Shown: in pieces, positions 10,415 to 60,748 of the stretch | How the letters are laid out: every line of letters begins with the position of its first letter | Position numbering within the stretch: position 1 is the stretch's first letter | Assembly: GCA_035703525.1 (NCBI GenBank) | Contig: DASSYA010000017.1 | Location: 171,304-235,303, forward strand | Direction of reading: 5' to 3' | Length of the DNA stretch: 64,000 nt | Source: Gemmatimonadales bacterium | Lineage (GTDB): Bacteria > Gemmatimonadota > Gemmatimonadetes > Gemmatimonadales > GWC2-71-9 | The notes under the pieces: generated by a model | Databases searched by the model: none | What the model saw: only the letters and a program-made list of their open reading frames with translations | What the model was told of the DNA's origin: nothing | Made by a program: the position numbers and the translations under genes

Positions 10415-11697
10415 ACCCAACCGGTGCGGTGATCGTCCGATGCGAGGGATGTGATCGCGACTTCCCCGATACCACGGCCGCGGTGCGCTGCCCCTGTGGT
10501 GGCCTGCTCACTGTGGTGCACGACCCCGCCGCACGGGGGGGGGAGCTCCGGGCGATGTTCGACGAGGCCTGCTGCGCCCGCCCGTCACGCACCGCCTCCG
10601 GCGTCTGGCGATTCGGGCCGATTGTGCACCCGAGCGCCATGGACGATGCCGTGTCCCATCCCGAGGGCCACACGCCGGTGATGCAGCGCGACCGCCTCTC
10701 CGCCTGGACCGGGATTGACGGCTTTCACGTCAAGCACGAGGGGTACAACCCGACCGGATCGTTCAAGGACCGCGGGATGACCGTCGCCATGACCCAGGCG
10801 CGTCGCACGGGCGCCACGGCGGTCGCGTGTGCCTCGACGGGCAACACCTCGGCGTCGCTGGCGGCGTACGCATCTCAGGCCGGACTCGACCCGCTGGTCT
10901 TCGTCCCCGAGGGTCAGGTCGCGGTGGGCAAGTTGGCCCAGTCGCTCGCCTATGGTGCCCGTACCCTGATGGTGCGAGGAGACTTCGACGCCTGCCTCAG
11001 CCTCGTGCAGGATGCGGGGGAGGCGCTCGGGATCTACCTGGTCAACTCGATCAATCCCTTCCGGCTCGAGGGTCAGAAGACCATCGTCCTCGAGCTGCTG
11101 CGCCAGTGGAATTGGGCCCCCCCGGAGTGGATCGTCTTGCCGGCCGGCAACCTCGGCAACACGGCCGCCTTCGGGAAGGCCCTTGAGGAGGCCCACGCCT
11201 GGGGCCTCATCGCCAGGATCCCGCGTCTTGCGGCCATCCAGGCCGCGGGGGCGGCGCCGTTCGCGGCCGCGTTTGCACGCGGCTTCGATCATCTGGTGCC
11301 GGTGCACGCCGAGACGCTCGCCACCGCCATCAGGATCGGGGCCCCGGCATCGTACCACCGGGCCGTTCGAGCCATCCGGGCGACCAACGGGGTGGTCATG
11401 GCGCTCGACGATGCAACCATCCTGGCCGCGAAGGCGGAGGTGGATGCCGCGGGAATCGGGGCAGAGCCCGCCAGTGCCGCATCGGTGGCTGGGGCCCGGG
11501 CTCTTCGGGCGAGCGGGCTCATCGCCACGAGGGATCGGGTTGTGGCGATCCTGACCGGTCATCTGCTCAAGGACCCCGGGATCATCGAACGGATGCACGG
11601 CACGCCGCCGCTTGTCCCGCACCCCAACCGACCGGTGACGATCGAACCGACCCTCGAAGCCCTCCGGACCGTCCTCGCCTCCCGGGCAGCCCCCTGA
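10411..11697 (+). CDS. thrC: threonine synthase
   Basis: PLP-lysine motif NPTGSFKDRG, an N-terminal Cys-rich zinc-ribbon-like segment, and an ATGA overlap with thrB. Confidence 0.92.
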   Translation: MNPTGAVIVRCEGCDRDFPDTTAAVRCPCGGLLTVVHDPAARGGELRAMFDEACCARPSRTASGVWRFGPIVHPSAMDDAVSHPEGHTPVMQRDRLSAWTGIDGFHVKHEGYNPTGSFKDRGMTVAMTQARRTGATAVACASTGNTSASLAAYASQAGLDPLVFVPEGQVAVGKLAQSLAYGARTLMVRGDFDACLSLVQDAGEALGIYLVNSINPFRLEGQKTIVLELLRQWNWAPPEWIVLPAGNLGNTAAFGKALEEAHAWGLIARIPRLAAIQAAGAAPFAAAFARGFDHLVPVHAETLATAIRIGAPASYHRAVRAIRATNGVVMALDDATILAAKAEVDAAGIGAEPASAASVAGARALRASGLIATRDRVVAILTGHLLKDPGIIERMHGTPPLVPHPNRPVTIEPTLEALRTVLASRAAP

Positions 11698-11873
11698 GGC
11701 ACGGACTTCGCACTGGAGCCCAACAGGCGGTGTCGGTGGAGTCCCCTCGAAGGGGGTGACCCGCCGGCTGTCCTCGCCTCGAACCACCCTACCCGTCCCG
11801 GAGGAAGCCTGCCGCTCGACTCGACCGTTGTTGCCTGTCCAGGTGGGGCGTTGACCCGCCGGGATCGGTCCTG

Positions 11874-13694
11874 GTGACGTCGCCTCGCATCGGCGACATC
11901 CTGCTCATGCGTGGCCTGATCACGCAGGGGCAGCTCGAGCAGGCGCTCGTCCAGCAACGCCGGACGGGAGAACGGCTCGGTCGGGTCGTGTTGACCCTGG
12001 GCATGGTGACGCGGCTCGAGCTGGCGCGGGCCCTCGCGGAGCGCTGGCAGCAGCCGTTCGTGATGGTCACTCCCGACATGGTCACGCCGAGCATTGCGCG
12101 ACGATTCCCGCTCGACGCCACCCTCGCGCTCCGGGCGGTTCCGCTGTCCGACGACGGGCAGGTCGTGCTGGTCGCCTCCGGCGAAGAACCGAGCGACACG
12201 CTGCGTGACACGCTCAACGTCGTCTACCCGGGTCGGCACCAGGACATCCGGATCACCACCGAGTGGGATATCGATCGAGCCATCGGCATCGCGCACCGCC
12301 GCGAGATGGTCGACGCCTCGATTCACGGGCTGTACTTCCGCCATCAGGAGGAGAGTGCCTTCCGGGTGTTCAGCCCGGGGCAGTACCTGTTGATCGTCCT
12401 CCTGCTGATGAGCATCCTCGTCGGTCTCTGGATGATCCCGCTCACCACGATGCTGCTGCTCACGCTGCTCTCCGCACTCGCCTTCGGCGGCGCGGTGATC
12501 TTCCGCATGCTGGTCGGACTGGCGGAGACACCGACCTCGGCGAGGATCACCGTCACCCCCGAGAGCCTCGCGGCGCTGACCGAACGCAGTCTCCCGACCT
12601 ACTCGATTCTGGTCCCGTTCGATCGCGAGCCTGCGCAGGTTGTCCCGTTGCTCGCCTCGCTGGCCGCGCTGGACTATCCGGTCGACAAGCTGGACGTGAC
12701 GCTGCTGTTCCATGAAGAAGACCTGGAGAGTCTCGACGCAGCGAAGGCCGCCGCTCCCCCCGACAACATCCGGTTTCTGGTAGTGCCCGCCGGCGAACTC
12801 CACACCAAGCCGATGGCCTGCAACGTGGGCCTGCTCTATGCCAAGGGCGAATTCCTCGTGGTGCTCGATGCCGGGGACCGGCCGGAACCGGATCAGCTCC
12901 GGAAGGCCGTGGTCGCATTTCGTCGCGGGCCCCGTCGGCTGGCGTGCCTGCAGGCCACGCGCAACGCCCGCAATTCGCGCACGACCTTCCTCAGCCGGTT
13001 CGCCACGATTGACCAGCTGTTCTGGCTCGAGCACTTGCTCCCGGGCCTTGATCGGTGGCGGTTCCCCGTGCCGATTGGCGGGACCAGCAACCACTTCCGT
13101 ACCGAGGTCTTGCGGGAGCTCGGCGGGTGGGATCCGTTCAACGTCACCGAGGATGCCGATCTCGGGGTGCGTGCTGCCATGCACGGCCACCGGGTGGGTA
13201 CGATCAACAGTGCGACGTCCGTTGTCATCAATGCGACATTGCTCGCATGGCTCCGCGAGCGAACCCGCTGGATCAAGGGATACATGCAGACGGCGCTGGT
13301 TTTCCTGCGTGATCCGATGACGCTCGCCCACCGACTCGGACCACGTCGCACCTTCGGATTCGCGTTCCTGATCGCTGCCACCCCCCTCGGCCATCTGATG
13401 CAGCCCGTGGCGACGGGACTCACCCTCCTCTGGATCATGGTCGACCCCAGACTGCTCGTGACGGCATCTCCGGCCTGGGCCATCGACGCCTCCGTGCTGT
13501 CACTCCTCATGGGGTATGCCGGCGTCATCACGATCCACTTGTTCACCGCACTCCGACATCGACGCTACGGCCTGGCGCTGCTCGCGCCGCTCGCCCCCCT
13601 CTATTGGCTCCTGCACAGCCTGGCGGCCTCGGCGGCGTTGGTCCAGCTCCTGCTCCATCCGGACCGGCTCAGGACCCAGGTCCAGGACGAGTAG
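11874..13694 (+). CDS. MshEN(T2SSE_N)-domain-containing family 2 glycosyltransferase, putative c-di-GMP-controlled processive polysaccharide synthase
   Basis: N-terminus has two tandem 24-aa MshEN motifs separated by 5 aa: RIGDILLMRGLITQGQLEQALVQQ, RRTGE, RLGRVVLTLGMVTRLELARALAER. These are followed by TM helices and a GT2 core with DAGD, TED (VTEDADLG) and a Q/ExxRW-like motif (RERTRWIKG), then C-terminal TM helices. Confidence 0.8.
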   Translation: MTSPRIGDILLMRGLITQGQLEQALVQQRRTGERLGRVVLTLGMVTRLELARALAERWQQPFVMVTPDMVTPSIARRFPLDATLALRAVPLSDDGQVVLVASGEEPSDTLRDTLNVVYPGRHQDIRITTEWDIDRAIGIAHRREMVDASIHGLYFRHQEESAFRVFSPGQYLLIVLLLMSILVGLWMIPLTTMLLLTLLSALAFGGAVIFRMLVGLAETPTSARITVTPESLAALTERSLPTYSILVPFDREPAQVVPLLASLAALDYPVDKLDVTLLFHEEDLESLDAAKAAAPPDNIRFLVVPAGELHTKPMACNVGLLYAKGEFLVVLDAGDRPEPDQLRKAVVAFRRGPRRLACLQATRNARNSRTTFLSRFATIDQLFWLEHLLPGLDRWRFPVPIGGTSNHFRTEVLRELGGWDPFNVTEDADLGVRAAMHGHRVGTINSATSVVINATLLAWLRERTRWIKGYMQTALVFLRDPMTLAHRLGPRRTFGFAFLIAATPLGHLMQPVATGLTLLWIMVDPRLLVTASPAWAIDASVLSLLMGYAGVITIHLFTALRHRRYGLALLAPLAPLYWLLHSLAASAALVQLLLHPDRLRTQVQDE

Positions 13695-13789
13695 GGCCGG
13701 ACCGCGGGGCCGAGGAGTGACGTCTCCCGTGCTCCGTGCGTCTTCAGGGGGACTCGCCAGCCCGCTGCCCCGGACCCGGACGACTGCTC

Positions 13790-14239
13790 ATGCGTGCCAT
13801 TCCCCTGCTCATTGCCCTCACGATCGCGAGCTGCGCCTCGCCGACCCTCCCCGAGGAACGTGAACTCGCGTCAGCCGAGGCCCGCTGGGACGCCAGGTCG
13901 TTTCCCGACTACGAGATGGAACTCCGGATCAGTTGCTACTGTCCGACCGAGGTCGGTGACTGGGCTCGCGTCCGGGTCGAAGGGGGGAGGGTCACCCAGG
14001 TCATGCGGCTGTCGGACCGCACCATCTACGCGCCACACTTGTGGACGATGTGGCATTCGATCGACGACATCTTCGAGCGACTCCGGAGCGTGCCCGGCTC
14101 CGACGTCTACGCGCGGTTCACCGCGACGTTCGACCCCGCGCTCGGTTTCCCGCGGGAGGCCAACCTGATCGAGCGGCCGAACATCGCCGACGCCGGGATC
14201 GCGTGGAGCATCCGGAACGTGGTGCCATTCACGAGGTGA
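13790..14239 (+). CDS. small lipoprotein, function unknown (possibly DUF6174-like)
   Basis: Lipobox LTIASC after MRAIPLLIA, and a conserved-looking CYCP motif. Start moved to the internal ATG 13790. The family call is from memory and weak. Confidence 0.55.
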   Translation: MRAIPLLIALTIASCASPTLPEERELASAEARWDARSFPDYEMELRISCYCPTEVGDWARVRVEGGRVTQVMRLSDRTIYAPHLWTMWHSIDDIFERLRSVPGSDVYARFTATFDPALGFPREANLIERPNIADAGIAWSIRNVVPFTR

Positions 14240-14268
14240 GCACGGCCCACGGAAGGACGCAATGCCGA

Positions 14269-14302
14269 ACGGTGCGGACCCTCGTGTGAGGATCCGCACC
14301 GT
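14269..14302. terminator. bidirectional hairpin between convergent genes
   Basis: ACGGTGCGGACC / GGATCCGCACCGT (12 bp with a 1-nt bulge) and a 9-nt loop, lying between the lipoprotein stop (14239) and the DPP-IV stop (14324). Confidence 0.5.
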
Positions 14303-14323
14303 CTCGCTCCTGGCGGCGGGCGC

Positions 14324-16423
14324 TCAGCTGGTGAGCTTCGCCGGCCGCATCACCAGGTTCTCGATGAAGAACTCCATCATCCGGGCAGAGTTGAGGCCCG
14401 AGTGTCCGGCGTCCGGACCGACCTGCACCTCGAAGCTCTTGCCGGCCTTCTGCAGTGACTGGATCAACTGCATCATGTTGTTCGGATGGACGTTGTCGTC
14501 GGCCGTGCCATAGTAGAGCATGAGCCGGCCATCAAGGTCCTTGGCGTACGTCATGGCATCGCCCGCCTCGTAGCCCGCCTTGTTCCCCTGTGGCGTCCAC
14601 ATGTAGCGCTCGGTATAGATCGTGTCGTAATGGTACCACGCCGTCACGGGCGAGGACGCCGATGCGGCCGCGAAGGCCTCCGGATGGCGGAGCAACGCCA
14701 TCGCCGAGGCATAGCCCCCGTAGGAGGTACCGAAGATGCCGACCCGCGTGCCGTCGACATACGGCCTGGTTGCCAGGTACTTCGAGGCCGCCGCCATGTC
14801 ATCGATCTCGGGCACGCCGAGCTTCTCGTAGATCGCGTCGAGGAAGTGCTTGCCCCGACCCGCGGCACTGCGGGTGTCGAGCGTCACCACCAGGAAGCCG
14901 TACTCCGTGTAAGGATGCGACGTGGCGTAGGTCTCCCGTGCCCCGTTGGTCGCCGGTCCGCCATAGACCGAGAAGATCACCGGGTACTTCTTCGACGGAT
15001 CGAAGTTGGATGGGAAGTTGAGCATGCCGTGAAGCGGCGTCTTGCCGTCCGCGGACGTATAGGTGAACAGTTCCACCGGCTTGAGCCCGAGCGCCTTGGC
15101 ACCACTGTCATCGCTCTCGGCGATGGTGGCGAGCACCTTCCCGTTCGCATCCATCAGGCGACTCACGGGCGGCGTGTCATGCGTCTGCGCGACATCGACG
15201 AACGTCTTGCCGTCGGGGGCCACCGTCACGGTGTGCAGGAACGCGGGATCGGTGAGCCGGCGGTCGTTCTTGCCGTCGAGTCCCACCCGGTGCAATTGCA
15301 CCTTCATGTAGTTGTCGCCGCTTCGGGCATAGTACCAGAGCTGCTTTGCCTTCTCGTCGACCTTGACGATGCCGTTCACCTCGAAGGGATGATTCGTGAG
15401 CGTCGCGAGCAGTGTGCCGCTGATGTCGTAGAGATAGTAGTTCTTGAAGCCGGTCCGCTCGGACTCCCAGATGAACCGCTTGCCGTCCTCGAGCCAGCGG
15501 ATCGTCGGCGAGTTGTCGGTCCAGGATGCCGGCCACGACTCGCGCACGATCACCCGACAGGCGCCGGTCGCCGGGGCGCAGGCGGTGAACTCCATGATGT
15601 TCTGGCGGCGGTTGGTCCGGTTGAAGAGCAGCTCGCTGCCATCGGGGCTCCACCGCACGCCGTAGACGTAGTAGCCGACGACATCATCGGCCGAGGGCTT
15701 GCCATCCCGGACCTCGACCTTGGTGGTCTTCCCCGAGGCAACATCGTAGACATAGAGGTCGACGATCGGGTTGTCCGTGCCGGCCTTCGGGTAGGCCTCC
15801 GTGGCGATCTCGTCGTAGAGCTTGGTCTGGTCCACCTGGAGGAAGTAGTCCTTGACCGGGCCCTCGTCGAAGCGGTAGTACGCCAGCTTGGTCCCGTCCG
15901 GGGACCACCACATCGCGGTGGTCTGGCGGAGCTCCTCGCCATAGACCCAGCTCGCGGTACCGTACTTGATGCGGCGTTCCTCGCTGCCGTCGGTGGTCAG
16001 CGGCTGTTCGCCGCTGCCGTCGGCCGCGCTCAACCAGACATTCCGGTCACGGTAGAAGGCCTTCTTCGTGGAATCCGGCGACATCGCCTCGGTGGCCTGG
16101 CGACCCCGCCCCGGCCCGCCGCGACGGAAGCCAGCGCCCCGATTGGTCTCCGCCGCCTCGATCTCGGTCGCGCTGCGCTTGCCGAGATCGTAGCGGTAGC
16201 GCTTGCCGTCAAGCGAGTAGATGAACGACTTGCTGTCATCGGCCCAGTCGGGTGAGACCTGCCCGCGCGTGACGGCGCTCCCGATCTTGGGCGCCATCTC
16301 GGCGTAACGGGCGTAGCCAGGCATCTCCTTGAGGCGATCCTGGGCGTGCAGCGAGACCACGAGGCCGCCCAGCAGGATCACGAGGGCGGTGTGGGAGGTA
16401 TGACGGACAATCCGAGAGGACAC
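14324..16423 (-). CDS. dipeptidyl-peptidase IV family serine peptidase (S9B)
   Basis: 699 aa with a signal peptide, a beta-propeller N-terminal domain and a C-terminal S9 catalytic domain. Catalytic residues: Ser in GTSYGGY, Asp in DDNVHPNN, His in AGHSG. GGAG lies 9 nt before GTG 16423. Confidence 0.88.
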   Translation of the reverse strand: MSSRIVRHTSHTALVILLGGLVVSLHAQDRLKEMPGYARYAEMAPKIGSAVTRGQVSPDWADDSKSFIYSLDGKRYRYDLGKRSATEIEAAETNRGAGFRRGGPGRGRQATEAMSPDSTKKAFYRDRNVWLSAADGSGEQPLTTDGSEERRIKYGTASWVYGEELRQTTAMWWSPDGTKLAYYRFDEGPVKDYFLQVDQTKLYDEIATEAYPKAGTDNPIVDLYVYDVASGKTTKVEVRDGKPSADDVVGYYVYGVRWSPDGSELLFNRTNRRQNIMEFTACAPATGACRVIVRESWPASWTDNSPTIRWLEDGKRFIWESERTGFKNYYLYDISGTLLATLTNHPFEVNGIVKVDEKAKQLWYYARSGDNYMKVQLHRVGLDGKNDRRLTDPAFLHTVTVAPDGKTFVDVAQTHDTPPVSRLMDANGKVLATIAESDDSGAKALGLKPVELFTYTSADGKTPLHGMLNFPSNFDPSKKYPVIFSVYGGPATNGARETYATSHPYTEYGFLVVTLDTRSAAGRGKHFLDAIYEKLGVPEIDDMAAASKYLATRPYVDGTRVGIFGTSYGGYASAMALLRHPEAFAAASASSPVTAWYHYDTIYTERYMWTPQGNKAGYEAGDAMTYAKDLDGRLMLYYGTADDNVHPNNMMQLIQSLQKAGKSFEVQVGPDAGHSGLNSARMMEFFIENLVMRPAKLTS

Positions 16424-31948: not shown

Positions 31949-32617
31949 ATCAAGTACCTCCTGATCGAGGATGACCCGCACCTCGCGGCAACGCTGCTCC
32001 GTGGACTGGGGGAGCAGGGCCTCCTCACCGAACACGCCGGGACCATCCGCGAAGGACATCGACGAGCGATCGAGGGGCATTGGCAGGCACTCATCGTGGA
32101 CGTGGCGCTCCCGGATGGTTCAGGGATCGAGCTCTGTCGGCGGCTCCGGCACGCCGGCAACACGACCCCGATCCTCATGCTCACGGCACGCGATGCGATC
32201 CAGGATCGGGTCACCGGACTCGATGCCGGTGCGGACGACTACCTGGTCAAGCCGTTTGCGTTCGCGGAACTGGTGGCGCGCCTCCGTGCCCTGGCCCGCC
32301 GTCCGGCCCCCCTCGTGCCGGACCAGCTCGTCGTAGGCGATCTCGAGATCGATTTCGTTGCCCGTTCGGCCGTTCGGGACGGCCGCGAACTCCGGCTCAC
32401 GGTCAAGGAGTTTGCGCTGCTCGAGATTCTCGCGCGCCGCGCGGGTGTCCTGGTCGACCGTCCGACCATCACGGCCGCCGTCTGGGACGAGAACCACGAC
32501 CCGTTCACCAACGTGCTTGATGTCCTCGTCCGGCGGCTGCGTCGAAAGCTCGACGACGAGGCATCCGTGCCCATGCTCGAGACGATCCGTGGTGCGGGCT
32601 ACCGGTTGCGCGCGTGA
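31949..32617 (+). CDS. OmpR-family response regulator (probable non-canonical ATC start)
   Basis: Receiver domain (KYLLIEDD, phospho-acceptor in LIVDVALPDGSG) plus winged-helix output (TIRGAGYRLR). The frame opens after TAG 31934-31936 and contains no ATG/GTG/TTG before 32096. GGAG (31939-31942) sits 6 nt before ATC 31949. Confidence 0.8.
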   Translation: MKYLLIEDDPHLAATLLRGLGEQGLLTEHAGTIREGHRRAIEGHWQALIVDVALPDGSGIELCRRLRHAGNTTPILMLTARDAIQDRVTGLDAGADDYLVKPFAFAELVARLRALARRPAPLVPDQLVVGDLEIDFVARSAVRDGRELRLTVKEFALLEILARRAGVLVDRPTITAAVWDENHDPFTNVLDVLVRRLRRKLDDEASVPMLETIRGAGYRLRA

Positions 32618-33918
32618 CATCGACCCAGGACTCCGGGGCCGTTCGCACCGCGCGTCGGCAGCTCACGCGCTGGTACTTGCTGACCATGGCGCTGATGCTT
32701 GGCCTCCTCGGTGCCGGCCTCTATCTCACCATCCGCCATCAGTTCCAGACCGAGCTCGACACCTCCCTCGCCCGGGCCACCGGCGAAGTGATCCGCGCTT
32801 CGCGGATCCGTGATCTCGAGGCGGGGGCCACCGGAACGGTGGTCGACGCCCTCGACGAACTGCGGATCCCTGACCGCTCACTGTACCTGATGGACTCCGA
32901 CGGGACACCGATCAAGCCGGCCCAGGCCGAGCCCTGGGTCATGGATGCGGCGCGACGCACCCCTGAAGGGGCAACCCTCGATCTGACCACGGAAGTCGCC
33001 GGCGACCGCACCCTCCGGATCCACAGCCAGTCGTTCGTGGCCTCGGGCGAACGCCACCGGATCGCTGTGGTCGTGGCTGACGAGGTGGAGCTCGAGCAGC
33101 AGTACGCCGCCCTGATCACCGCCTTCGGGGCCGCGGCACTCGTGGCACTCCTGCTGGTCGCCGTTGCCGGCCGGATGCTGGTCGACCGGTCGATGCAGCC
33201 GGTCGAGCTCGGCATCACCCGGATGCGCCAGTTCATGGCCGACGCGGCCCACGAACTCCGGACCCCGGTCGCTGTCCTGCGGACGCGGGCCGAGGTCGCC
33301 CTCCTCCAGCCACGCGATGCCGATGCCTACCGCGAGGCACTCGAGGGAGTCACGGCCGAGGCGACGCGATTGAGCGGCCTCGTGGGTGACCTTCTCCTGC
33401 TCGCCCATGCGGACGCGGGCGAGCGCCCCATCGAACCCGTCTACGGTCATCTCGACGACATCGTGCTCGACGCCTGCGATGCTGCACGGTCCCTGGCCAC
33501 CGTGGCCGGGGTGACGATCGAGATCGCGGGGTTCGAGCAGGCCGACGTGCATGCCGACCCTGCCCTGCTTCGCCAGGCCGTCATGATCCTCCTGGACAAT
33601 GCGGTCAAGTTCACCCCCCCCCACGGAACGATCACCGTGGCCGTCGGCACGACGGACAACGCGGCGTTCGTGACCATCAGCGACACCGGGCCCGGGATCG
33701 CACCCAGCGAGCGTGCGCGTGTCTTCGATCGCTTCATGCGCGGCACCGCCCCCCCCGGAGCAGGTCACCAGCCCGGCGCCGGCCTCGGGCTGTCGATCGC
33801 CCAGTGGATCGTCACCGCGCACGGGGGTCGGATCGCCTTGCACCCCGGGCGCCCCACGGGCACGGTGGCCAGGCTGAGCCTGCCGATTCCGGGCACGGCG
33901 GGCCGCAGCCTCTCGTAG
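32614..33918 (+). CDS. sensor histidine kinase (two TM helices, periplasmic sensor)
   Basis: H-box AAHELRTPVAVL, N-box LDNAVKFTPP and G-boxes DTGPGI / GLGLSIA. GTGA overlap with the regulator gene. Confidence 0.88.
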   Translation: MTSTQDSGAVRTARRQLTRWYLLTMALMLGLLGAGLYLTIRHQFQTELDTSLARATGEVIRASRIRDLEAGATGTVVDALDELRIPDRSLYLMDSDGTPIKPAQAEPWVMDAARRTPEGATLDLTTEVAGDRTLRIHSQSFVASGERHRIAVVVADEVELEQQYAALITAFGAAALVALLLVAVAGRMLVDRSMQPVELGITRMRQFMADAAHELRTPVAVLRTRAEVALLQPRDADAYREALEGVTAEATRLSGLVGDLLLLAHADAGERPIEPVYGHLDDIVLDACDAARSLATVAGVTIEIAGFEQADVHADPALLRQAVMILLDNAVKFTPPHGTITVAVGTTDNAAFVTISDTGPGIAPSERARVFDRFMRGTAPPGAGHQPGAGLGLSIAQWIVTAHGGRIALHPGRPTGTVARLSLPIPGTAGRSLS

Positions 33919-33966
33919 GACGCGCCGTGTCAGGTCACCGACAGGTGGCCGCAGTACACTCCCCGC

Positions 33967-35178
33967 ATGACCAGCACCCATCCGGCCCTGATCGGCCTCT
34001 GGCTCGTGATACCGCTCGGCAGCATCGCGGCGCAGGTGCCGACTCGCCCGCTCTCGCGGGTCGAGGCGCGGACGATGGCCGCCAGTGGCGGGCCCACCCT
34101 CCAGGTGGCGGCCGCCGACACGACGCTCGGCGCAGCCCTGGTCCGGGATGCAGGCCTGCGCGCCGACCCGACGCTTGCCACCTCGTGGACGAAGTCGACG
34201 CCCCGATATCACATCGAACTGTCCTGGCCCATTGATCTCCCGGGCGTGCGGGGCGCACGGCTCCGTGCTGCACGATCGTCCGCCGACGCACTCCGCCTCG
34301 GCTGGAGTGCGGCGCAGGCCAGTGCCGCCATGACGGCTGACACCCTCTACCTCCGCGCGCTGGAGTCCGAGGCCGTCGCGCAGGCCAGCACAGCCGATGC
34401 CATGACCGCTCGACGGTTGGCGGAGCTGGCGAGCGCCGGGGTGGCCGCCGGCGAGACCAGCCGGTTCGACGCCGCCCTTGCCGCCCTGTCGGCCGAACGC
34501 TCCCGTGATCAGCTCGCCAGCGATTCCCTGGCCCTGCATGCGGCGATGCTTGCCCTGCAACGCGCGGTCGGCGATTCGGCCGACACCATTCACTTGACGC
34601 TCACGGATTCCCTCGCGGCGCCGACGGCCGTGCTCCCGAGCCGGTTGAACGCCGACCTGCTCGCGGCCGATGCCACCACGCTCGCCGCCGACGAGGCGAT
34701 TCGCAGTGCGCGCCGGACACGATGGAGTGGCACCGCGCTCCTCACCGGCATCGAGTTCGGTGACCCGGCAGTCGCCCATCACGAACTCCTGCCGGTCATC
34801 GGCCTCAGCCTTCCGATCCCGTTGTTCAACCGTGGCCGCGGCGCGACGGCGATCGCCGAGGCCGAGGCGGTCCGGGCGAGCGCCGCACGAACCACGTTGC
34901 GACGTGAGCTCGAAACCGCCCGGGTGATCTACCGTGCGCAATTCGCGTCGGCGATGGCACGGCTCGAGCAGGACGCCGCGCGCCTGGCAACGGCCGACGA
35001 TCTCGAACGGATGGCGGTCCAGGGCTTCCGCGAAGGGGAAACCGGGTTGCCCGCTGTCCTGGAGGCGGCCCGCACCGCCCGCGACATCCGCGTCATGCGA
35101 GCCCACCTTCTCGCCGACGCCATGATCGCCGCGGCAGTCCTGGAACACGTGGGGCTCCTGGCCCCGGCGGCCCCATGA
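33967..35178 (+). CDS. TolC-like outer membrane efflux protein (OMF)
   Basis: 403 aa with a signal peptide and an Ala/Leu/Arg-rich coiled-coil repeat composition typical of OMF proteins. First gene of the OMF-MFP-RND triplet, joined by overlapping start/stop codons. Confidence 0.75.
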   Translation: MTSTHPALIGLWLVIPLGSIAAQVPTRPLSRVEARTMAASGGPTLQVAAADTTLGAALVRDAGLRADPTLATSWTKSTPRYHIELSWPIDLPGVRGARLRAARSSADALRLGWSAAQASAAMTADTLYLRALESEAVAQASTADAMTARRLAELASAGVAAGETSRFDAALAALSAERSRDQLASDSLALHAAMLALQRAVGDSADTIHLTLTDSLAAPTAVLPSRLNADLLAADATTLAADEAIRSARRTRWSGTALLTGIEFGDPAVAHHELLPVIGLSLPIPLFNRGRGATAIAEAEAVRASAARTTLRRELETARVIYRAQFASAMARLEQDAARLATADDLERMAVQGFREGETGLPAVLEAARTARDIRVMRAHLLADAMIAAAVLEHVGLLAPAAP

Positions 35179-36218
35179 CCCGCAGGATCTCGTTGCCCCG
35201 TCCCCTCCTCGCCCTCGTCGCGCTCGGTTCCGCGTGCGGCACGCCCGCTGCTCCCCCCCCCGACATTGCCGCGCCGACGGTGGCCACCGCGGTGGCCCGG
35301 ACGGACACCTTCGTCACGATCATCCCGGCCCTCGGTCGGGTGGCCGCTCGCGATGGCTTCATTGCGCGCCTCGGCGCACCCCAGCAGAGTCGCGTCACGG
35401 CGGTTCACGTCAGTCAGGGGGACCGGGTCACGGCGGGCGCACCACTCGTCAGCCTCGATCTTCCGGCCTTCCGGGCGCAGCTCGAGAGTGCCACCGCGCG
35501 CCTCGACGCCGCCGAGGCGGCGTGGCAGCGTGCCGTCCGTCTTGAGCGCGATGGGCTCGTCGCGCAGCGCGACGTCGAGCAGCGGGCGGCCGACCTGGCG
35601 GCGGCGCGCGCGGAATCGGTGAACAGTCACCTGAACGCCGAACGCGCCGAGTTGCGATCCCCGATCACGGGCGTGGTGGCATCCATGACGGCCACACTCG
35701 GCGCGACCGTCGATCCCGGCACCGTGCTGGTGGAGGTCGTCGATCCGGATCGACTCGAGATCGTGCTGGACGTGCCGCCGGACGTCGCGAGACAGTTGCA
35801 ACCCGGAATGCAGGCCGTCCTCCGGAGCGTGGCCACCAACGGCGACTCGCTGGGAATCGGAGTTGTCCGCACGGTCTCGCCGCTGCTCGACGCGGCGGGC
35901 GGCACCGTGCGCGTCCGCCTTCGTGTCGCATCCGGTCATGCGGCCCTCCGCCTCGGCGAATCGGTGCAGGCGGCCATCGTGGCTGGACGTGTGCCCGATG
36001 CCATCGTCGTGCCGATCGACGCCCTCGTCCCCGAAGGTGACAGCTTCATCGTCTACACGGTCGATGCCGATGGCATGGTGCACCACCGGCCGGTGCGCGT
36101 CGCCGGTCGAAATGCCGCGCTCGCCTCCATTTCGGCAGGGCTGAACGTCGGTGAGCGGGTCGTCACCACCGGCGCATACGGCATGGTGGACAGCACGACG
36201 GTCGGCATCGCTCCATGA
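35175..36218 (+). CDS. efflux RND transporter periplasmic adaptor (MFP/HlyD family)
   Basis: Lipoprotein-like N-terminus (ALVALGSAC), a biotinyl/lipoyl-like motif (SQGDRVTAGAPLVSLD), an alpha-hairpin and a beta-barrel segment. ATGA overlaps on both sides. Confidence 0.8.
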   Translation: MTRRISLPRPLLALVALGSACGTPAAPPPDIAAPTVATAVARTDTFVTIIPALGRVAARDGFIARLGAPQQSRVTAVHVSQGDRVTAGAPLVSLDLPAFRAQLESATARLDAAEAAWQRAVRLERDGLVAQRDVEQRAADLAAARAESVNSHLNAERAELRSPITGVVASMTATLGATVDPGTVLVEVVDPDRLEIVLDVPPDVARQLQPGMQAVLRSVATNGDSLGIGVVRTVSPLLDAAGGTVRVRLRVASGHAALRLGESVQAAIVAGRVPDAIVVPIDALVPEGDSFIVYTVDADGMVHHRPVRVAGRNAALASISAGLNVGERVVTTGAYGMVDSTTVGIAP

Positions 36219-39200
36219 GCGAGCTCCCGGGAGGTGGCTGGCTCCACCGCCAGCGTCGCGCGATCCATCTCGCCATCGCGGTACTGAGCGCGGCCGGCAT
36301 CTGGGCGGCGCTTCATACACCGTCGGCGATCTATCCCGAGCTCGAGTTCTCGCGCATCACGATTGTCGCCGACGCCTCGGCGCTCGGGGTCCGGCAGGTG
36401 CTCTTCGGGGTCACTCGGCCGATCGAGGAGGCGGTCACCGTGGTGCCTGGCGTGACCCGGGTCGAGTCGCGGGCGATTCGCGGGGGCAGCGAGACCACCG
36501 TCTCGTTCGCCCCGAAGACCGACATGCCGGTGGCACTCCAGCAGGTCCAGGCGCGCGTCAATCAGATCCAGGGCGACCTGCCGCTCGGAACCACGCTGCA
36601 GGTCGAGCGCCTGACGCCGTCGCTCTTCCCGATCCTCTCGTACAACCTCGAGGGAGGCGACCCGGCAGCGCTGCTCGACATCGCACGCTACCAGTTGCGC
36701 CCCCTCTTCTCCCGAGTCCCCGGTGTCGCCCGGGTCGACGTGATGGGGAGCGTGCAACGGGAAATCGAGGTCGTCGCCGATCCGATGCGCCTGGCTGCCC
36801 GCGGCATGACGTGGGAGGATCTGGCCACGGCGATTCGCGGCGCGAGCACCGTTACCGCGCTCGGCCCCTTGCCGACCTCGTACCGGCAGTACCTGCTCCT
36901 TGGCGGTCGGGAAGTCCACTCGGCCGACGAAGTGGCCGCCCTGCCGATCTCACCTGTGCTGCGAGTGCGGGATGTCGCCGATGTCCGGATCGGCACGACC
37001 GACCGGACGCTGCTGGTGACCGGCGGCGGCGCCCCTGCGGCGTTCATCACCGTGAGTCGGCAAGTCGGCGGCAACACACTGGCCATCGCCGACAGCATCG
37101 CCGGCACCGCCCGCACTCTCGCAGCCGAGCTGCCGCCCGGCGTCCGGCTCGTGCCGGTCTACGATCAGGCCATGCTGGTCCGTGACGCGATCCGATCGGT
37201 CCGCGACGCCATGCTCATCGGGGCGGTCCTCGCGGTGCTCGTGCTCTTTGCCTTTCTTCGTGATCTCCGCGTCACGGCCATTTCCGCGGCGGTGATTCCA
37301 CTCACGATGGCCATCACGACCCTCGTGATGGTACTGCTCGGACAGTCGTTCAACCTGATGACGCTCGGCGCGATGGCCGTGGCCATCGGCCTGGTGATCG
37401 ACGACGCCGTTGTGGTCACCGAGAACATCGTGCGGCATGTCCGCCAGACCCCGGACCGCTTCCGTGCCGTCGCCGACGCGGTGCGTGAGCTGCGCTGGCC
37501 CGTGACCACCTCGACGCTCACCACCATCGTGGTGTTCCTCCCGCTCGGCCTGCTCGGTGGCGTGGAAGGCCAGTTCTTCCGGACACTCGGCTTGACGCTC
37601 TCGGTCGCGGTCGTGGTCTCCCTCGTGCTGGCGTTCACGATCATTCCATTGCTCGCAACCAGCGTGCTGCGCACCCCGGCCCGATCCGCGGACCCGGAAG
37701 ACGCTTCGACCGACAATCCGCTCGCGTCGCGGTATGCCAGCCTGATCGACACACTGCTCGACCGACCGCGCCTGGCATGGTTGGCCGCCCTCCTGCTGTT
37801 GATCGCCGCGGGACTGATGTACCGCACGGTCGGCACCGGCTTCCTCCCCGAGATCGATGAGGGGGCCTTCGTGCTCGACTACTTCACGCCGGGGGGGACC
37901 GCGCTCCCCGAGACGGATCGACAGCTCCGCGTCGTCGAGCAGATCCTGCTGCACACACCCGAGGTCGAGGCCTTCTCCCGACGCACCGGTGCAGAACTGG
38001 GCCTGTTTGCGACGGGCCAGAACACCGGCGATTTCATCGTGCGTCTCCGACCGATGAACCAGCGCAGTCGGACCACGGCGGAGGTGATCGACGGGGTGCG
38101 ACAGCAGATCGAATCGGCAACCCCCCAGCTGAAGATCGAATTCGTGCAGATCCTCACTGATGTCATCAATGATCTGGCTGGTGTCCACAACCCGGTGGAA
38201 CTGAAGCTGTTCGGCCCCGACCTGCACCAGCTCGAGGCCTACGCCGACACCCTGACCGCGCATCTCGAGCCAGTCGCGGGCCTGGTGGACCTGTACAGCG
38301 GCGTGAGCGAGCCGGCAGCGGAGATGGCACTGGACGTCGACCCGATCGCGATCCGGCGTGCCGGTCTGGCGCCCGGCGAGGTCGAGCAACAGGTACGGGG
38401 CGCGCTCATGGGCGTCCCGGCCGGTGCTGTCCTGCTCGATGACCGCGCCATCGAGATCCGGGTCCGCGCACCGGATGCCGTCCGGTTCGACCCGACGGCA
38501 CTCGCGGTGTTGCCGATCCTGGCGCCCGCCAGCCCGACCGCCCTGCCCCTCAATGCCCTGGCCTCGATGCAACCCGAACTCGTTCGTGGCGAGCTGCGGC
38601 GCGAGGACCAGCAACAGATGCTCACGCTTACCGGCGATCTCGGCGGGCGGGCGCTTGGGGCCGTCATGACCGACGTCCGCACCGTGCTGGCGGCGACACC
38701 GCCACCGCACGGCATCCAGGTGCGGATCGCCGGCCAGGATGCGGGGCAACGCGCCGCATTTCGCGCGCTGCTCGCCGTCCTGTTGCTGGCCAGTGTCTCG
38801 GTGGTCGCGGTGATGGTCGTGCAGTTCCGGTCGTTCGCCGAACCGCTGATCATCCTGCTCGCGGCGCCACTCTCCGTGAGCGGGGCGCTTGGCGCACTGT
38901 GGTTGACCGGAACGGTGCTCAATGTCTCGAGCGTGATGGGGATGATTTTCCTGGTCGGGCTCGTCGTCAAGAACGGCATCATCCTGCTCGAGTTCGCCGA
39001 TGCGGAGATGCGCGCGGGCGTCCCGATCCGGATCGCGATCGGCGAGGCCGCGCGCGTCCGGCTCCGGCCGATTCTCATGACCACGCTCTGCACCCTGTTT
39101 GGCCTGCTGCCGCTCGCACTCGGGCTCGGTCCCGGCAGTGACATGCAACGCCCGCTCGCCCTTGCGGTCCTTGGCGGGCTGGCCCTCTCGACCCCCATCA

Positions 39201-39277
39201 CATTGTTCCTGGTGCCCGTGCTGTTCTACACCGTCCGCCGTCACGCGGATGCGTCTTCACCCAACAGGAGTACCTGA
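36215..39277 (+). CDS. efflux RND transporter permease (AcrB/CusA/CzcA superfamily)
   Basis: 1020 aa with 12-TM topology and two large periplasmic loops. TM4 motif AIGLVIDDAVVVTEN. Substrate class not assignable by eye. Confidence 0.88.
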   Translation: MSELPGGGWLHRQRRAIHLAIAVLSAAGIWAALHTPSAIYPELEFSRITIVADASALGVRQVLFGVTRPIEEAVTVVPGVTRVESRAIRGGSETTVSFAPKTDMPVALQQVQARVNQIQGDLPLGTTLQVERLTPSLFPILSYNLEGGDPAALLDIARYQLRPLFSRVPGVARVDVMGSVQREIEVVADPMRLAARGMTWEDLATAIRGASTVTALGPLPTSYRQYLLLGGREVHSADEVAALPISPVLRVRDVADVRIGTTDRTLLVTGGGAPAAFITVSRQVGGNTLAIADSIAGTARTLAAELPPGVRLVPVYDQAMLVRDAIRSVRDAMLIGAVLAVLVLFAFLRDLRVTAISAAVIPLTMAITTLVMVLLGQSFNLMTLGAMAVAIGLVIDDAVVVTENIVRHVRQTPDRFRAVADAVRELRWPVTTSTLTTIVVFLPLGLLGGVEGQFFRTLGLTLSVAVVVSLVLAFTIIPLLATSVLRTPARSADPEDASTDNPLASRYASLIDTLLDRPRLAWLAALLLLIAAGLMYRTVGTGFLPEIDEGAFVLDYFTPGGTALPETDRQLRVVEQILLHTPEVEAFSRRTGAELGLFATGQNTGDFIVRLRPMNQRSRTTAEVIDGVRQQIESATPQLKIEFVQILTDVINDLAGVHNPVELKLFGPDLHQLEAYADTLTAHLEPVAGLVDLYSGVSEPAAEMALDVDPIAIRRAGLAPGEVEQQVRGALMGVPAGAVLLDDRAIEIRVRAPDAVRFDPTALAVLPILAPASPTALPLNALASMQPELVRGELRREDQQQMLTLTGDLGGRALGAVMTDVRTVLAATPPPHGIQVRIAGQDAGQRAAFRALLAVLLLASVSVVAVMVVQFRSFAEPLIILLAAPLSVSGALGALWLTGTVLNVSSVMGMIFLVGLVVKNGIILLEFADAEMRAGVPIRIAIGEAARVRLRPILMTTLCTLFGLLPLALGLGPGSDMQRPLALAVLGGLALSTPITLFLVPVLFYTVRRHADASSPNRST

Positions 39278-39978: not shown

Positions 39979-40089
39979 GGCGTACTCCGTGGAGAGGGAC
40001 GGGCAGCGCGGGGACAGGTGATCATGCGTCAGGACGTCCCAACCGGCCCACGGTGACACGCCGGGGCCGGGTCCCACTAGGTTTGTGGC

Positions 40090-42267
40090 ATGGACCTTTT
40101 TGATCTTCAGCGCGCCAAGATCCCTGCCCTCCCGGCCCGGATCGAGGGCTTGGCCGCCCTTGCCTGTAACCTCGCCTGGAGCTGGCACCGCCAGTCCCGA
40201 GCCATCTTCCGACGCGTCGACCCGGTCATCTGGCGACGATCCGCCCACAACCCGATCACGTTGCTCCGAGAGGTCACGCCCGCTCGGCTCGAGGCGTTGC
40301 TCCACGACAATGACTTCCTGGCCCACTACGACGAGGTCATGTCGTGGTTCACGGTCGAACGCACTGCCGAAGGTGGCTGGTTCCGGGATCAGTGGCCGGA
40401 TCTGGGCACGGACCGCCCGGTCGCCTATTTCTGCGCGGAGTTCGGTCTCCACGCGTCGGTCCCGATCTATTCGGGCGGCCTGGGTGTGCTTGCCGGTGAT
40501 CACTGCAAGACGGCGTCGGACCTCGCGGTGCCGTTCGTCGGGGTCGGCCTCTTCTACAAGAAGGGCTACTTCGATCAGCAGGTGAGCCCGGTCGGGTGGC
40601 AGGAAGACGGGGACGACGAAGTGGATCCGATCCTCACGCCACTGGTCCGGATTCCCGGTGCGGATGGAGCCGCATGGGTCACGGTGCTCGAGACCTTCGG
40701 TCGTCCGGTACACATCGCGGTCTGGACCATGACGGTCGGGCGTGCACCGATCTACCTGCTCGATACCGACCTCGAGGAGAATGCCCCTGAGGATCGCGGG
40801 CTCACGAGCAAGCTCTATTCCGGCGGGCTTCCGATGCGACTCCGCCAGGAATGGGTGCTGGGTGTCGGGGGCACCCAGGTGCTCGCCGCGCTCGGCGTGA
40901 CGCCCGGTGCATGGCACGCGAACGAGGGGCATGCCGCCTTCATGATGCTCGAACGCGTGCGGCAGCGCGTGATGGCCGGCGTCGAATTCGATGCGGCCGT
41001 CAGCGAGGTCCGGCGCACCACCCTGTTCACCACTCACACGCCGGTCCCCGCGGGGCACGATCACTTCAATCTCGAGAGCGTGATCGAGTGCGCCGGGGCC
41101 GCCTGGCTGGCGAGTTTCGGTATCGGCCTCGACCGGGTGCTGTCACTCGGGGTCCATGCGGCCCGGGGCCTTGATCAGTTTCACATGACCGTGCTCGCGA
41201 TCCGCTGCGCCGGGCATGTGAACGGGGTGGCCCAGCGACATGGGATCGTCTCGCGGGAGATCTGGGGCGACCTCTGGCACAACCGCGCCCCCGAGCAGGT
41301 CCCGATCGGTGCGGTGACCAACGGCGTGCACCTGCCGACCTGGATGGCCAATCCGATCAAGCGCCTGCTCGATCGACATCTGGGTCGCGGCTGGGTCGCG
41401 CGGCGCGATGAGGCAGAGACGTGGGATGCCGTGCTCGGGCTCGACTCGCACATGCTGTGGGCCGAACACCAGGCGCTGAAGCAGGCACTGCTCCACCATG
41501 TGCGCGAGGATGCCCGGCGACGCTGGGGCGAGACGTGGACCGAAGCCGCCCAGGTCGTGGCGAGCGGCACGCTGCTCGACCCGAACGTGCTCACGATCGG
41601 CTTCGCGCGCCGGTTCGCGACCTACAAGCGCGCGGACCTGCTCTTCCGCGATACCGAACGCCTCCGGCGCATGCTCACCGACCAGCAGCAACCGGTTCAA
41701 CTGGTACTGGCCGGCAAGGCGCACCCGCAGGACAACCCCGGCAAGGAAGTGCTCCAGGCGATCCACTACTTCACGCGGGACCCGATGTTCGAGGGCCGGG
41801 TGGCGTTCCTGGAGGACTATGACATGCACCTCGCGCACCTGCTGGTCCAGGGCGTCGACCTCTGGCTCAATGTGCCACGGGTGCCGCTGGAGGCCAGCGG
41901 CACCAGTGGCATGAAGGCCGCCCTCAACGGGGTGCCGCACCTCTCGACCCTTGACGGCTGGTGGGAGGAGGGGGCGTCGGGTCGGAATGGCTGGACCATC
42001 CCGCGATCGATGGCCGCCACCGAGGAGGAGGTCGATGCCGAGGATGCCGAGGCGTTGTATCGGATCCTCGAGCAGGAAGTGATCCCGATGTGGTATCATC
42101 GAGATGACGATGGGGTGCCCCAGGGCTGGGTGATGCGCATGAAGGAATCGATCCGCGTCGCCGGCAAGCAGTTCGCGGCCCGCCGGATGCTCCAGGATTA
42201 CGCTCGGCAGTACTATGCACCGATCCTGAGGGGGGACCCCTTCACCGACGATCCACCGACAGGCTGA
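40090..42267 (+). CDS. glgP: alpha-glucan (glycogen/maltodextrin) phosphorylase, GT35
   Basis: 725 aa. N-terminal DUF3417-like region and PLP-lysine region EASGTSGMKAALNG. Confidence 0.9.
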   Translation: MDLFDLQRAKIPALPARIEGLAALACNLAWSWHRQSRAIFRRVDPVIWRRSAHNPITLLREVTPARLEALLHDNDFLAHYDEVMSWFTVERTAEGGWFRDQWPDLGTDRPVAYFCAEFGLHASVPIYSGGLGVLAGDHCKTASDLAVPFVGVGLFYKKGYFDQQVSPVGWQEDGDDEVDPILTPLVRIPGADGAAWVTVLETFGRPVHIAVWTMTVGRAPIYLLDTDLEENAPEDRGLTSKLYSGGLPMRLRQEWVLGVGGTQVLAALGVTPGAWHANEGHAAFMMLERVRQRVMAGVEFDAAVSEVRRTTLFTTHTPVPAGHDHFNLESVIECAGAAWLASFGIGLDRVLSLGVHAARGLDQFHMTVLAIRCAGHVNGVAQRHGIVSREIWGDLWHNRAPEQVPIGAVTNGVHLPTWMANPIKRLLDRHLGRGWVARRDEAETWDAVLGLDSHMLWAEHQALKQALLHHVREDARRRWGETWTEAAQVVASGTLLDPNVLTIGFARRFATYKRADLLFRDTERLRRMLTDQQQPVQLVLAGKAHPQDNPGKEVLQAIHYFTRDPMFEGRVAFLEDYDMHLAHLLVQGVDLWLNVPRVPLEASGTSGMKAALNGVPHLSTLDGWWEEGASGRNGWTIPRSMAATEEEVDAEDAEALYRILEQEVIPMWYHRDDDGVPQGWVMRMKESIRVAGKQFAARRMLQDYARQYYAPILRGDPFTDDPPTG

Positions 42268-42272
42268 CCGAC

Positions 42273-45415: not shown

Positions 45416-45420
45416 GACCG

Positions 45421-51581: not shown

Positions 51582-51619
51582 GCGAAGGGCGACGGACCGG
51601 ATCGAGTGTGAAATGCGGC

Positions 51620-54775: not shown

Positions 54776-54898
54776 GGGGGCCTGTCCGATGGGTTGGGAA
54801 GTGTCAAGTATGGCACCGGACGGCCGGTGAGGAAAGCCTTTCACCCCATCCGATCCGCGCCGAGGCCCTCATCTCCTGTATGGGCACTATTTTGGGGG

Positions 54899-57549: not shown

Positions 57550-58084
57550 ACCCGATCGCCCCGACCCGCGTCTCGCCGGCCTGATCGACGGTCTCGTCGA
57601 TCGTGCTCCGGCGTCTGATCTCTGGCCCGGCATCTCCGCCCGGCTGACGCCTCACCGCCGCGGTACCGTGGTGATGCGGTGGCCCACCGCGCTGGCTGCC
57701 GGTTTGGCCCTCGTGACGGGATCCGTCGGCCTCACCCTGCTCATGCAGGCTCGACCCGTGGCCAGCCGTCCCCTCCCCGACCACCCGGCCCCGACCGGAC
57801 CCGAGGCGGTGCTGCCGGCCGGATTCGTGCAAGCGACCGGCACCCTGCAGCGGGCGATTGACGACCTCGAGCAGACCCTGGCGACGACGACCCAGGCCCT
57901 CGATCCCACCACCCGTGACCGGGTCCGCGAAGCCATCGCGACACTCGACGCGGCGATTGATGATGCACGCCAGCGCGCCATGGGGGCACCGACCGACCTC
58001 GGCGCGGCACGCTACCTCACGCGCGCGATGCAGCGGAAGCTCGATGTGCTCCAGAGCGTCGCCACCCTGACGCACCGGAGCTGA
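57539..58084 (+). CDS. putative membrane-anchored anti-sigma factor
   Basis: Overlaps the end of the sigma gene. Single TM helix (WPTALAAGLALVTGSVGLTLLM), with a short cytoplasmic N-terminus and a helical periplasmic C-terminus. No ZAS motif. Confidence 0.6.
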   Translation: MVIEPDRPDPRLAGLIDGLVDRAPASDLWPGISARLTPHRRGTVVMRWPTALAAGLALVTGSVGLTLLMQARPVASRPLPDHPAPTGPEAVLPAGFVQATGTLQRAIDDLEQTLATTTQALDPTTRDRVREAIATLDAAIDDARQRAMGAPTDLGAARYLTRAMQRKLDVLQSVATLTHRS

Positions 58085-58938: not shown

Positions 58939-58946
58939 TCCCGCAG

Positions 58947-60659: not shown

Positions 60660-60748
60660 GCCATGCACGCTCCCAGGGGTCGCGGCCCGTGGATTCGACC
60701 GCATTCACACGATACGCCTGACACACCCACCCAGGTTGAGTCCGGGGA

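Follow-up and report, generated by a model that had tools for sequence, protein, structure and literature searches.

What does a membrane-bound glycosyltransferase (GT) with a well-preserved predicted sensor for cyclic di-GMP (c-di-GMP) do at a locus from which the usual partners of its family have been deleted? The question is raised by a 606-residue protein encoded, from a GTG start codon, in a 64,000-nucleotide stretch of Gemmatimonadales DNA (assembly GCA_035703525.1, contig DASSYA010000017.1, positions 171,304 to 235,303), the whole of which was analyzed and is referred to below as the window. The open reading frame (ORF) was confirmed in the window, and the exact protein sequence occurs in the protein collection as that of a Gemmatimonadales metagenome-assembled genome (MAG). 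A sequence-only reading of the locus had proposed a c-di-GMP-gated exopolysaccharide (EPS) synthase in which a tandem MshEN motif is fused to a glycosyltransferase family 2 (GT2) body and which is accompanied by a small lipoprotein only. The sensor and the fold of that proposal are upheld here, but a plain EPS synthase is doubtful for this gene because the family partners have been deleted from its syntenic slot. The interpretation that we tentatively put forward, without calling it established or even probable, is a c-di-GMP-controlled glycosyltransferase with a changed role that acts autonomously and is probably not a secreting polymerase.

The predicted receptor motif consists of two repeats, residues 5-28 (RIGDILLMRGLITQGQLEQALVQQ) and 34-57 (RLGRVVLTLGMVTRLELARALAER), with the five-residue spacer RRTGE between them. 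No further match to the 24-residue MshEN pattern turns up when the window is translated in all six frames, and the chance expectation of the tandem is ~1e-14. Hidden Markov model (HMM) searches, which had been suggested as a check, gave a match of the NCBIfam model NF053729 ('c-di-GMP_motif, MshE-related') to residues 5-56 with 61.6 bits, well above the cutoff of 38. The Pfam MshEN model (PF05157) was marginal: it covered residues 60-138, which is the MshEN_C part only, with 21.6 bits, slightly below its cutoff of 23.1. Under the published relaxed pattern all 22 of the 22 specified positions are satisfied, a score reached by just 3 of 83 other homologues. The tandem motif with its short spacer is a real one of high quality. 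The two consensus deviations that had been noticed before, L to I at position 2 of motif 1 and Q to R at position 24 of motif 2, are indeed present; there is also a third, M instead of F/L/V/I at position 11 of motif 2.

The N-terminus aligns with the solved c-di-GMP-binding domains of Vibrio cholerae MshE (5HTL, E 6e-10) and Thermus thermophilus PilF, over a range that extends to residues 110-137, and the MshEN_C part of an AlphaFold model contains the strands 88-93, 97-102 and 122-127 flanked by helices. The 53-residue tandem motif is the same as in MshE and PilF. In those ATPases of type II secretion and type IV pilus systems the motif serves a secretion ATPase, whereas here the output domain is a membrane glycosyltransferase. 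The non-binder XpsE is altered at eight positions compared to MshE (PMC5013675). By manual mapping on the MshE alignment seven of the eight carry the MshE residue or a conservative equivalent in our protein; the eighth, MshE Q61, corresponds to R57, and an R at the last motif position is permitted by the relaxed pattern (PMC5013675). The ratio of nonsynonymous to synonymous substitution rates (dN/dS) of the motif region was 0.10-0.18 within the clade of close relatives, indicating purifying selection. Judged by these sequence comparisons the N-terminal domain is a well-preserved MshEN sensor that would bind c-di-GMP.

Such preservation is not common in the family. The R-x-G start is kept in both halves of the motif in only 15 of 83 other homologues, and 34 of the 83 score at most 16 of the 22 positions. 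In the columns of residues 5-57 visibly degenerate motifs occur in Xanthomonas (L075, L081), Mucilaginibacter (L036-L065) and others; the Xanthomonas homologues read LLGRALV... and RLGDVILAQRGV... at these columns. With mostly degenerate MshEN domains, direct c-di-GMP gating may not be universal among the XagB-type proteins described below.

The glycosyltransferase body was matched by the Pfam models Glyco_trans_2_3 and Glyco_tranf_2_3 (E ~1e-17) and lies between hydrophobic blocks at residues 161-219 and 512-594. The AlphaFold model of the full-length protein, built from an alignment of 42 sequences, has a pLDDT of 85.8 and a pTM of 0.81. It places helices at 168-187, 189-216, 490-523, 534-561 and 571-594 in the hydrophobic blocks, and an interface helix at 456-477 that bears the equivalent of the QxxRW motif. 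A Foldseek search with the model gave BcsA (5ej1_A) as the top PDB match (E 3.5e-12, TM score 0.52, rmsd 4.7 Å over 439 columns), followed by the hyaluronan synthases of a Chlorella virus (CvHAS) and Xenopus (XlHAS1) and by chitin synthases (Chs1). In agreement with this, hhalign aligned residues 240-523 to residues 272-556 of Escherichia coli BcsA with a probability of 98%. On account of the Foldseek and BcsA profile matches the body is predicted to be a membrane-integrated GT2 with a processive-synthase fold, linked to the MshEN domain through two transmembrane (TM) helices much as the sequence-only reading had supposed.

Homologues of the protein number 4,497 in the protein collection, several of them named 'glycosyltransferase XagB' by JGI, and when one genome per species was scanned, the family appeared in at least 599 species genomes from more than ten phyla. 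The homologues at the Xanthomonas loci L075 and L081, which we take to be XagB, are 34-35% identical to the protein over residues 6-596. The homology to these Xanthomonas proteins is full-length, and the order of an N-terminal MshEN or T2SSE_N domain, a TM pair, the GT2 domain and a C-terminal membrane region is shared with XagB and, going by its published description, with Sfz2. An N-terminal position of MshEN, considered distinctive when the locus was first read, is therefore already known and not new. In Wang et al. 2016, 'MshEN - Glyco_trans_2_3' (Rhodobacter sphaeroides Rsph17029_0522) appears in Supplementary Table 4 next to the arrangement of NfrB, 'Glyco_trans_2_3 - MshEN'. Sfz2 of the zetaproteobacterial stalk cluster has an N-terminal T2SSE_N domain and a GT2 domain with TED and QxxRW, and adjoins the BcsB-like Sfz1 (PMC8250860). 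A 'bcsB-like, xagB, xagC, xagD' cluster was described in freshwater iron oxidisers (PMC4643136), and a Xanthomonas oryzae mutant without the HD-GYP protein RpfG needs xagA and xagB for its excess biofilm (PMC3609779). By descent and architecture the protein belongs to the XagB/Sfz2 lineage, yet it departs from the family in its signatures and in its operon: DAED, xEEAx and QxxRW are altered, the C-terminal WEKTxH is deleted, and XagC/PMT-like, BcsB-like and XagA/D-like neighbors are missing. Its MshEN motif, on the other hand, is far better preserved than that of Xanthomonas XagB and most family members.

Compared to the characterized enzyme NfrB of E. coli, the protein likewise combines MshEN and Glyco_trans_2_3 in a single membrane protein, and its MshEN domain can be aligned with that of NfrB (hhalign probability 96%). 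The domains come in the opposite order, with NfrB consisting of GT, TM region and then MshEN; this C-terminal position, which had been stated correctly, was confirmed from the NfrB sequence, from profiles and from PMC8669469. The motifs of NfrB (L087) were read straight from its sequence, as hhalign to the family profile reported the MshEN part only; they are HD169AED, TED, QKSRW and W-D-K-T-T-H. NfrB and canonical members of the XagB family thus have HDAED, TED, QxSRW and W[DE]KTxH in common, and our protein has lost three of these four. Genes resembling NfrA (outer membrane) or YbcH, the other components of the NfrBA-YbcH system, were not found in the window. Membership of the NfrB group was rejected, both on the reversed order and on the NF008411 equivalog score of 43.4 bits (cutoff 1170), to which only the MshEN part contributed. 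For NfrB it was shown experimentally that GT function needs the binding of c-di-GMP to MshEN (PMC8669469), and by analogy this sets a precedent for possible allosteric control of the protein studied here.

The resemblance to BcsA comprises the structural match and the alignable GT core, and canonical members of the family occur together with a BcsB-family protein. BcsA is controlled by c-di-GMP, and we infer the same for our protein. Unlike BcsA, the sensor would be an N-terminal MshEN domain and not a C-terminal PilZ domain (Pfam detected no PilZ domain in the protein), there are about four TM helices instead of eight, QxxRW has E for Q, and the clade has neither BcsB nor an FxVTxK-like loop. 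Assignment to BcsA was rejected with 52 bits against a cutoff of 699 for TIGR03030 and 34 bits against 992 for NF008558; assignment to PgaC was also rejected on the equivalog score.

The departure from the family signatures is specific to the clade of close relatives. Of 83 homologues outside this clade, 82 have DAED, 82 have TED, all 83 have xEEAx and QxxRW, and 80 have the C-terminal WEKT. The clade instead has DA[G/A/P/S]D, SVVI[N/D/H] and [E/H]RTRW, and its C-terminus stops before WEKT, so that of the five signatures our protein keeps TED alone. The earlier description of DAGD, TED and RxRW as processive motifs consequently applies to TED, the other two being deviant forms; the letters called RxRW do occur, in R-E-R-T-R-W at 461-466, with an E at the Q position of QxxRW. 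In the BcsA alignment the D-A-E of the family falls on D-C-D of BcsA, and the position of E334, equivalent to the second Asp of BcsA, is Gly in our protein. D332 and D335 are still present, the former in five of the six clade members, as are R465 and W466 of the QxxRW equivalent. No variation among the six members is seen in TED, R465, W466, D335 or GGTSNHF.

At the C-terminus, the last helix before W[DE]KTxH is polar-faced in canonical members (mean hydropathy 0.1-1.0), whereas the corresponding values in the clade are 1.5-1.7. Its position and its motif similarity to FxVTxK of BcsA suggest that W[DE]KTxH is the equivalent of the gating loop. The same W-[DE]-K-T-x-H is common to the C-termini of 80 of 83 XagB-family proteins and to NfrB, where it occupies residues 470-475, directly before MshEN. 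It resembles FxVTxK and could be the element under MshEN control.

The changes are unevenly distributed over the protein. There are 185 alignment columns with at least 95% conservation among 36 sequences from outside the clade, and 41 of these differ in the clade: 23 belong to the GT domain, 14 to the C-terminal region, three to TM1-2 and one to MshEN. When evolutionary rates of the clade were compared with those of canonical sisters, using Chloroflexota and Deinococcota as outgroups, the clade-to-canonical distance ratios were 1.05 for MshEN, 1.20 for TM1-2, 1.67 for GT and 1.56 for the C-terminal region. Within the clade the overall dN/dS against the L004 and L005 orthologues was 0.11-0.13, and the GT domain had the lowest value of all domains (0.06-0.09). 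Sequencing errors do not account for the changes, since the same ones are found in six independent assemblies. A burst of change was limited to the catalytic and membrane modules and was followed by strong constraint; the gene is not decaying.

The genomic context was surveyed at 87 loci with iterated profiles. XagC/PMT-like proteins were encoded at 69 loci, BcsB-like proteins at 45 and a 272-residue XagA/D-like protein at 15. In Truepera radiovictrix, for instance, the gene is flanked on one side by a BcsB-family gene (Pfam BcsB 32 bits, cutoff 21) and on the other by a gene for a 452-residue polytopic membrane protein, with a GH5 cellulase gene adjoining. A signal peptide and a C-terminal anchor are present in the BcsB-like proteins, and about 9-10 hydrophobic segments in the XagC-like ones. 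The XagC-like (~460 residues) and PMT-like (~491 residues) proteins are apparently homologous (GT-C-like), as iterated HMM searches starting from either converge on the same matches.

Two Gemmatimonadales loci with homologues of 59% and 62% identity (L003 and L006, respectively) occupy the same slot as the gene in the window, downstream of thrB-thrC; the DPP-IV gene on the other side is visible in L003 only, as the L006 contig ends. Both carry an operon for a PEP-CTERM protein, a PMT-like membrane protein, a BcsB-like protein, the GT and a 461-residue membrane protein, of which 377 residues are visible in L006 before the contig end, and overlaps between the genes suggest translational coupling. 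The PMT-like and the XagC-like type are thus both present in these operons (L003 6534-8009 and 11811-13196; L006 6484-7959 and 11769-12899). The loci L091 and L092 (63% identity) have PMT-like, BcsB-like, GT and 457-residue membrane protein genes on short contigs that do not reach thrBC or DPP-IV.

The clade differs sharply from these sisters. In the window and in L004, L005 and L093 (81-100% identity) the order is thrABC, GT, a 95-bp spacer, one or two copies of a DUF6174 gene, an optional glycoside hydrolase family 3 (GH3) gene and DPP-IV. The GH3 gene is found in L004 and L005 only and is missing from the window, and the L093 contig stops shortly after DUF6174, so that its GH3/DPP-IV end is not visible. 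A sister lineage (P0006, 67% identity) has thrABC, GT, two unrelated small genes and DPP-IV, without DUF6174. XagC/PMT-like or BcsB-like genes were absent from the clade loci L004, L005, L093 and L089, and tblastn gave no match to the partner proteins within the window. The clade has therefore deleted the XagC/PMT-like and BcsB-like partners from the same syntenic slot and kept the synthase only. That no export partner, diguanylate cyclase (DGC) or sugar-precursor gene adjoins had been stated before, and it extends to the entire window: the Pfam inventory contained no GGDEF, EAL, HD-GYP or PilZ proteins and no outer-membrane EPS porin, export or nucleotide-sugar genes. Two DGC or phosphodiesterase candidates from regular-expression searches (50553-51908 and 58230-59666) are spurious, as they contain no Pfam domain. 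Elsewhere in the family about nine other loci with long flanks also lack recognized partners (L010, L013, L015, L021, L027, L028, L048, L078 and L086); these keep DAED, TED, xEEAx and QxxRW, and all but L028 keep WEKT. Across the family, partner loss by itself does not accompany motif remodeling.

The proposal that we tentatively make starts from an inner-membrane protein in which an MshEN domain at the N-terminus and a GT-A domain with interface helix both lie in the cytosol, joined by two TM helices and followed by C-terminal membrane helices. Its clade is a derived offshoot from which the polytopic XagC/PMT-like and the periplasmic BcsB-like partners were deleted. On the presumed donor, metal and gating side the clade has remodeled the second DxD-equivalent carboxylate, xEEAx, the Q position of QxxRW and the W[DE]KTxH segment at the C-terminus. 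TED with the presumed catalytic base, R and W in the QxxRW equivalent and GGTSNHF on the acceptor side were kept under strong purifying selection. With neither channel or periplasmic partners nor a gating loop, the product would more likely be short or membrane-proximal (e.g., a glycolipid or a primer) than a secreted long-chain EPS. The data show the architecture, family membership, motif states, synteny and selection; c-di-GMP binding, allosteric control, retained catalysis and the kind of product are predictions. Several points weigh against the proposal. Position 334 is unconstrained in the six members (G/A/A/P/S/T), and the sister P0006 also lacks the first Asp (YHPTD). In BcsA and CesA8 both aspartates of DxD are ligands of the Mg2+ in contact with the β-phosphate, R and W of QxxRW make contacts with diphosphate and acceptor, and activity depends on the FxVTxK gating loop after IF3 (PMC10592267). 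Because the DxD carboxylates and the gating loop are required there, the signature changes could, by analogy, mean a loss of activity. Moreover, the gating-loop assignment of W[DE]KTxH is suggested by position and motif similarity, and partner genes might lie elsewhere in a genome known from MAG contigs.

A broader formulation, possible but in our view rather doubtful, is that a former EPS synthase was re-purposed with its sensor kept, either as a pseudo-synthase receptor or as a c-di-GMP-gated, non-processive transferase, e.g., for a glycolipid or primer; for the latter form, the loss of E334 together with the gain of E/H462 provides a candidate relocated metal ligand. The receptor form taken by itself, in which the GT is dead and the protein serves as a membrane-anchored c-di-GMP receptor or scaffold, or as a glycan- or nucleotide-binding module that relays the signal, we regard as unlikely. 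The free position 334, the YHPTD of P0006 and the requirements of BcsA and CesA8 would all fit it, as would the loss of xEEAx, of the Q of QxxRW and of the entire W[DE]KTxH in the face of their presence in 80-83 of 83 homologues, the inactivity of NfrB D169A, in which the first Asp of DAED is mutated (the D267A and W330A mutants also lack activity; PMC8669469), and the fact that the sensor is the best-preserved module. A dead enzyme is hard to reconcile with a GT domain that has the lowest dN/dS of all domains, with D332 kept in most members and with the clade-wide invariance of TED, R465, W466, D335 and GGTSNHF, since one would hardly expect such constraint unless the domain still catalyzed a reaction or at least bound a substrate.

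Still less probable is an ordinary c-di-GMP-gated processive EPS synthase-exporter with accessory proteins that are encoded elsewhere or unneeded. The BcsA/HAS-like fold and the intact MshEN domain are what such an enzyme would have, the family is tied to biofilm EPS through xagA and xagB in the Xanthomonas rpfG mutant (PMC3609779), Sfz2 is a candidate for stalk-matrix synthesis (PMC8250860), the roughly nine long partnerless loci lack recognized partners as well, and remote partners are possible in a MAG. It does not explain why the partners were deleted from the exact syntenic slot and are found nowhere in the window, why four catalytic or gating signatures conserved in the family are altered in this clade only, or why the GT and C-terminal regions evolved faster; furthermore, about four TM helices may not suffice to form a translocation channel of its own. 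Finally, the N-terminal domain might be a mere T2SSE_N-type fold that does not bind c-di-GMP, with a misleading motif match. The slightly sub-threshold Pfam score, the degenerate motifs of many family members and the R that ends motif 2 would agree with this, but NF053729 is far above its cutoff, all specified positions are satisfied, the terminal R is allowed (PMC5013675) and the motif residues are under purifying selection, and we consider a non-binding domain very improbable.

The gene downstream of the GT encodes a DUF6174 protein (PF19671, E 3e-20) of 149 residues, counted from the Met at 13790, with the lipobox IAS-C. The lipoprotein ORF of the sequence-only reading is therefore genuine, but a partner of the synthase it is not: DUF6174 follows the GT gene in 4/4 closest-clade loci, is absent from the sister lineage and other sampled loci, and in the survey of 87 loci turned up nowhere but in the window and the two relatives closest to it. 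It is not a conserved partner of the family, and nothing links it functionally to the synthase. The protein has only five close homologues, and a structure model based on these five reached a pLDDT of 53. In L005 the gene occurs in tandem (10968-11426 and 11514-11975), the second copy being 58% identical to the protein of the window.

Short non-coding blocks at 11698-11717, 13717-13724 and 13738-13749 of the window are kept across the clade although the synonymous divergence (dS) between the GT genes is ~0.6-0.9. The first, GGCACGGACTTCGCACTGGA, directly follows the thrC stop codon in 4/4 close-clade loci and partially in the sister L089; the other two lie in the spacer between GT and DUF6174 (Table 1), and a further conserved block, GTGACGTC, spans the GT start codon. 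An RNA element such as a c-di-GMP riboswitch was not found near the gene, the sole Rfam match being a chance snoRNA (E 0.46). Neither a sigma-70 promoter nor an intrinsic terminator was detected in 11600-14450 with consensus patterns that may not suit Gemmatimonadota.

Table 1. Coordinates of the MshEN-GT2 gene, its domains and motifs, and adjacent elements in the window (res, residues).
Feature	Position	Strand	Evidence
MshEN-GT2 (XagB-family) gene, 606 aa	11874..13694	+	profile matches; dN/dS vs L004 and L005 orthologues
MshEN_N c-di-GMP-binding motif, predicted, 2 x 24-residue repeats (res 5-28, 34-57)	11886..12044	+	NF053729, motif pattern
MshEN_C (T2SSE_N1-like) subdomain, res 58-145	12045..12308	+	PF05157, PDB alignments, model strands
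TM helices 1-2, sensor-to-GT link, res 165-216	12366..12521	+	hydropathy; model helices 168-187, 189-216
GT-A glycosyltransferase core and interface helix, res 240-480	12591..13313	+	Pfam, hhalign, Foldseek
DAGD, res 332-335, deviant form of family DAED	12867..12878	+	alignments
TED catalytic motif, res 425-427, retained	13146..13154	+	alignments
SVVIN, res 449-453, in place of family xEEAx	13218..13232	+	alignments
ERTRW, res 462-466, QxxRW with Q -> E; R, W kept	13257..13271	+	alignments
C-terminal membrane region, res 490-594, and short tail 595-606, without W[DE]KTxH	13341..13691	+	model, hydropathy, alignments
DUF6174 lipoprotein gene, 149 aa, lipobox Cys15	13790..14239	+	Pfam, lipobox; clade-specific neighbor
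Conserved non-coding blocks GTGAC[GT]TC, GCGTCTTCAGGG in 95-bp GT-to-DUF6174 spacer	13717..13749	.	4/4 clade loci

Other parts of the window encode an α-glucan (glycogen) cluster (40081-49292) with a DUF3417 phosphorylase-like protein, a GT5 glycogen synthase, a GH57 branching enzyme with BE_C, a GH57/DUF3536 protein and a GH57 amylase or 4-α-glucanotransferase. At 32521-39274 a histidine kinase gene is followed by genes for an outer-membrane efflux protein and an AcrB-type RND transporter; these serve drug or metal efflux and are not an EPS exporter. The window further contains a 1,082-residue Ser/Thr protein kinase with C-terminal TPR repeats (51623-54868, minus strand) and two DUF4097 'toastrack' proteins (57964-58935 and 60421-61641, plus strand) on either side of an amidase gene.

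To our knowledge, MshEN-GT2 proteins are among the commonest predicted c-di-GMP outputs in phyla without PilZ-type synthases, and biochemistry is available only for NfrB with its reverse domain order. The degenerate MshEN domains of most XagB-type proteins, the Xanthomonas homologues included, are a caution against labeling the entire family as c-di-GMP-gated. The Gemmatimonadales locus offers a natural comparison between canonical sisters, which have the full operon and all signatures, and a stripped clade with an intact sensor in the same slot. This comparison could separate the elements that serve polymerization and export from those that serve signal reception, and could show if W[DE]KTxH is a gating loop controlled by MshEN. 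If the proposed change of role is correct, the clade would illustrate how, in nature, an EPS synthase module was re-purposed following the loss of its secretion partners.

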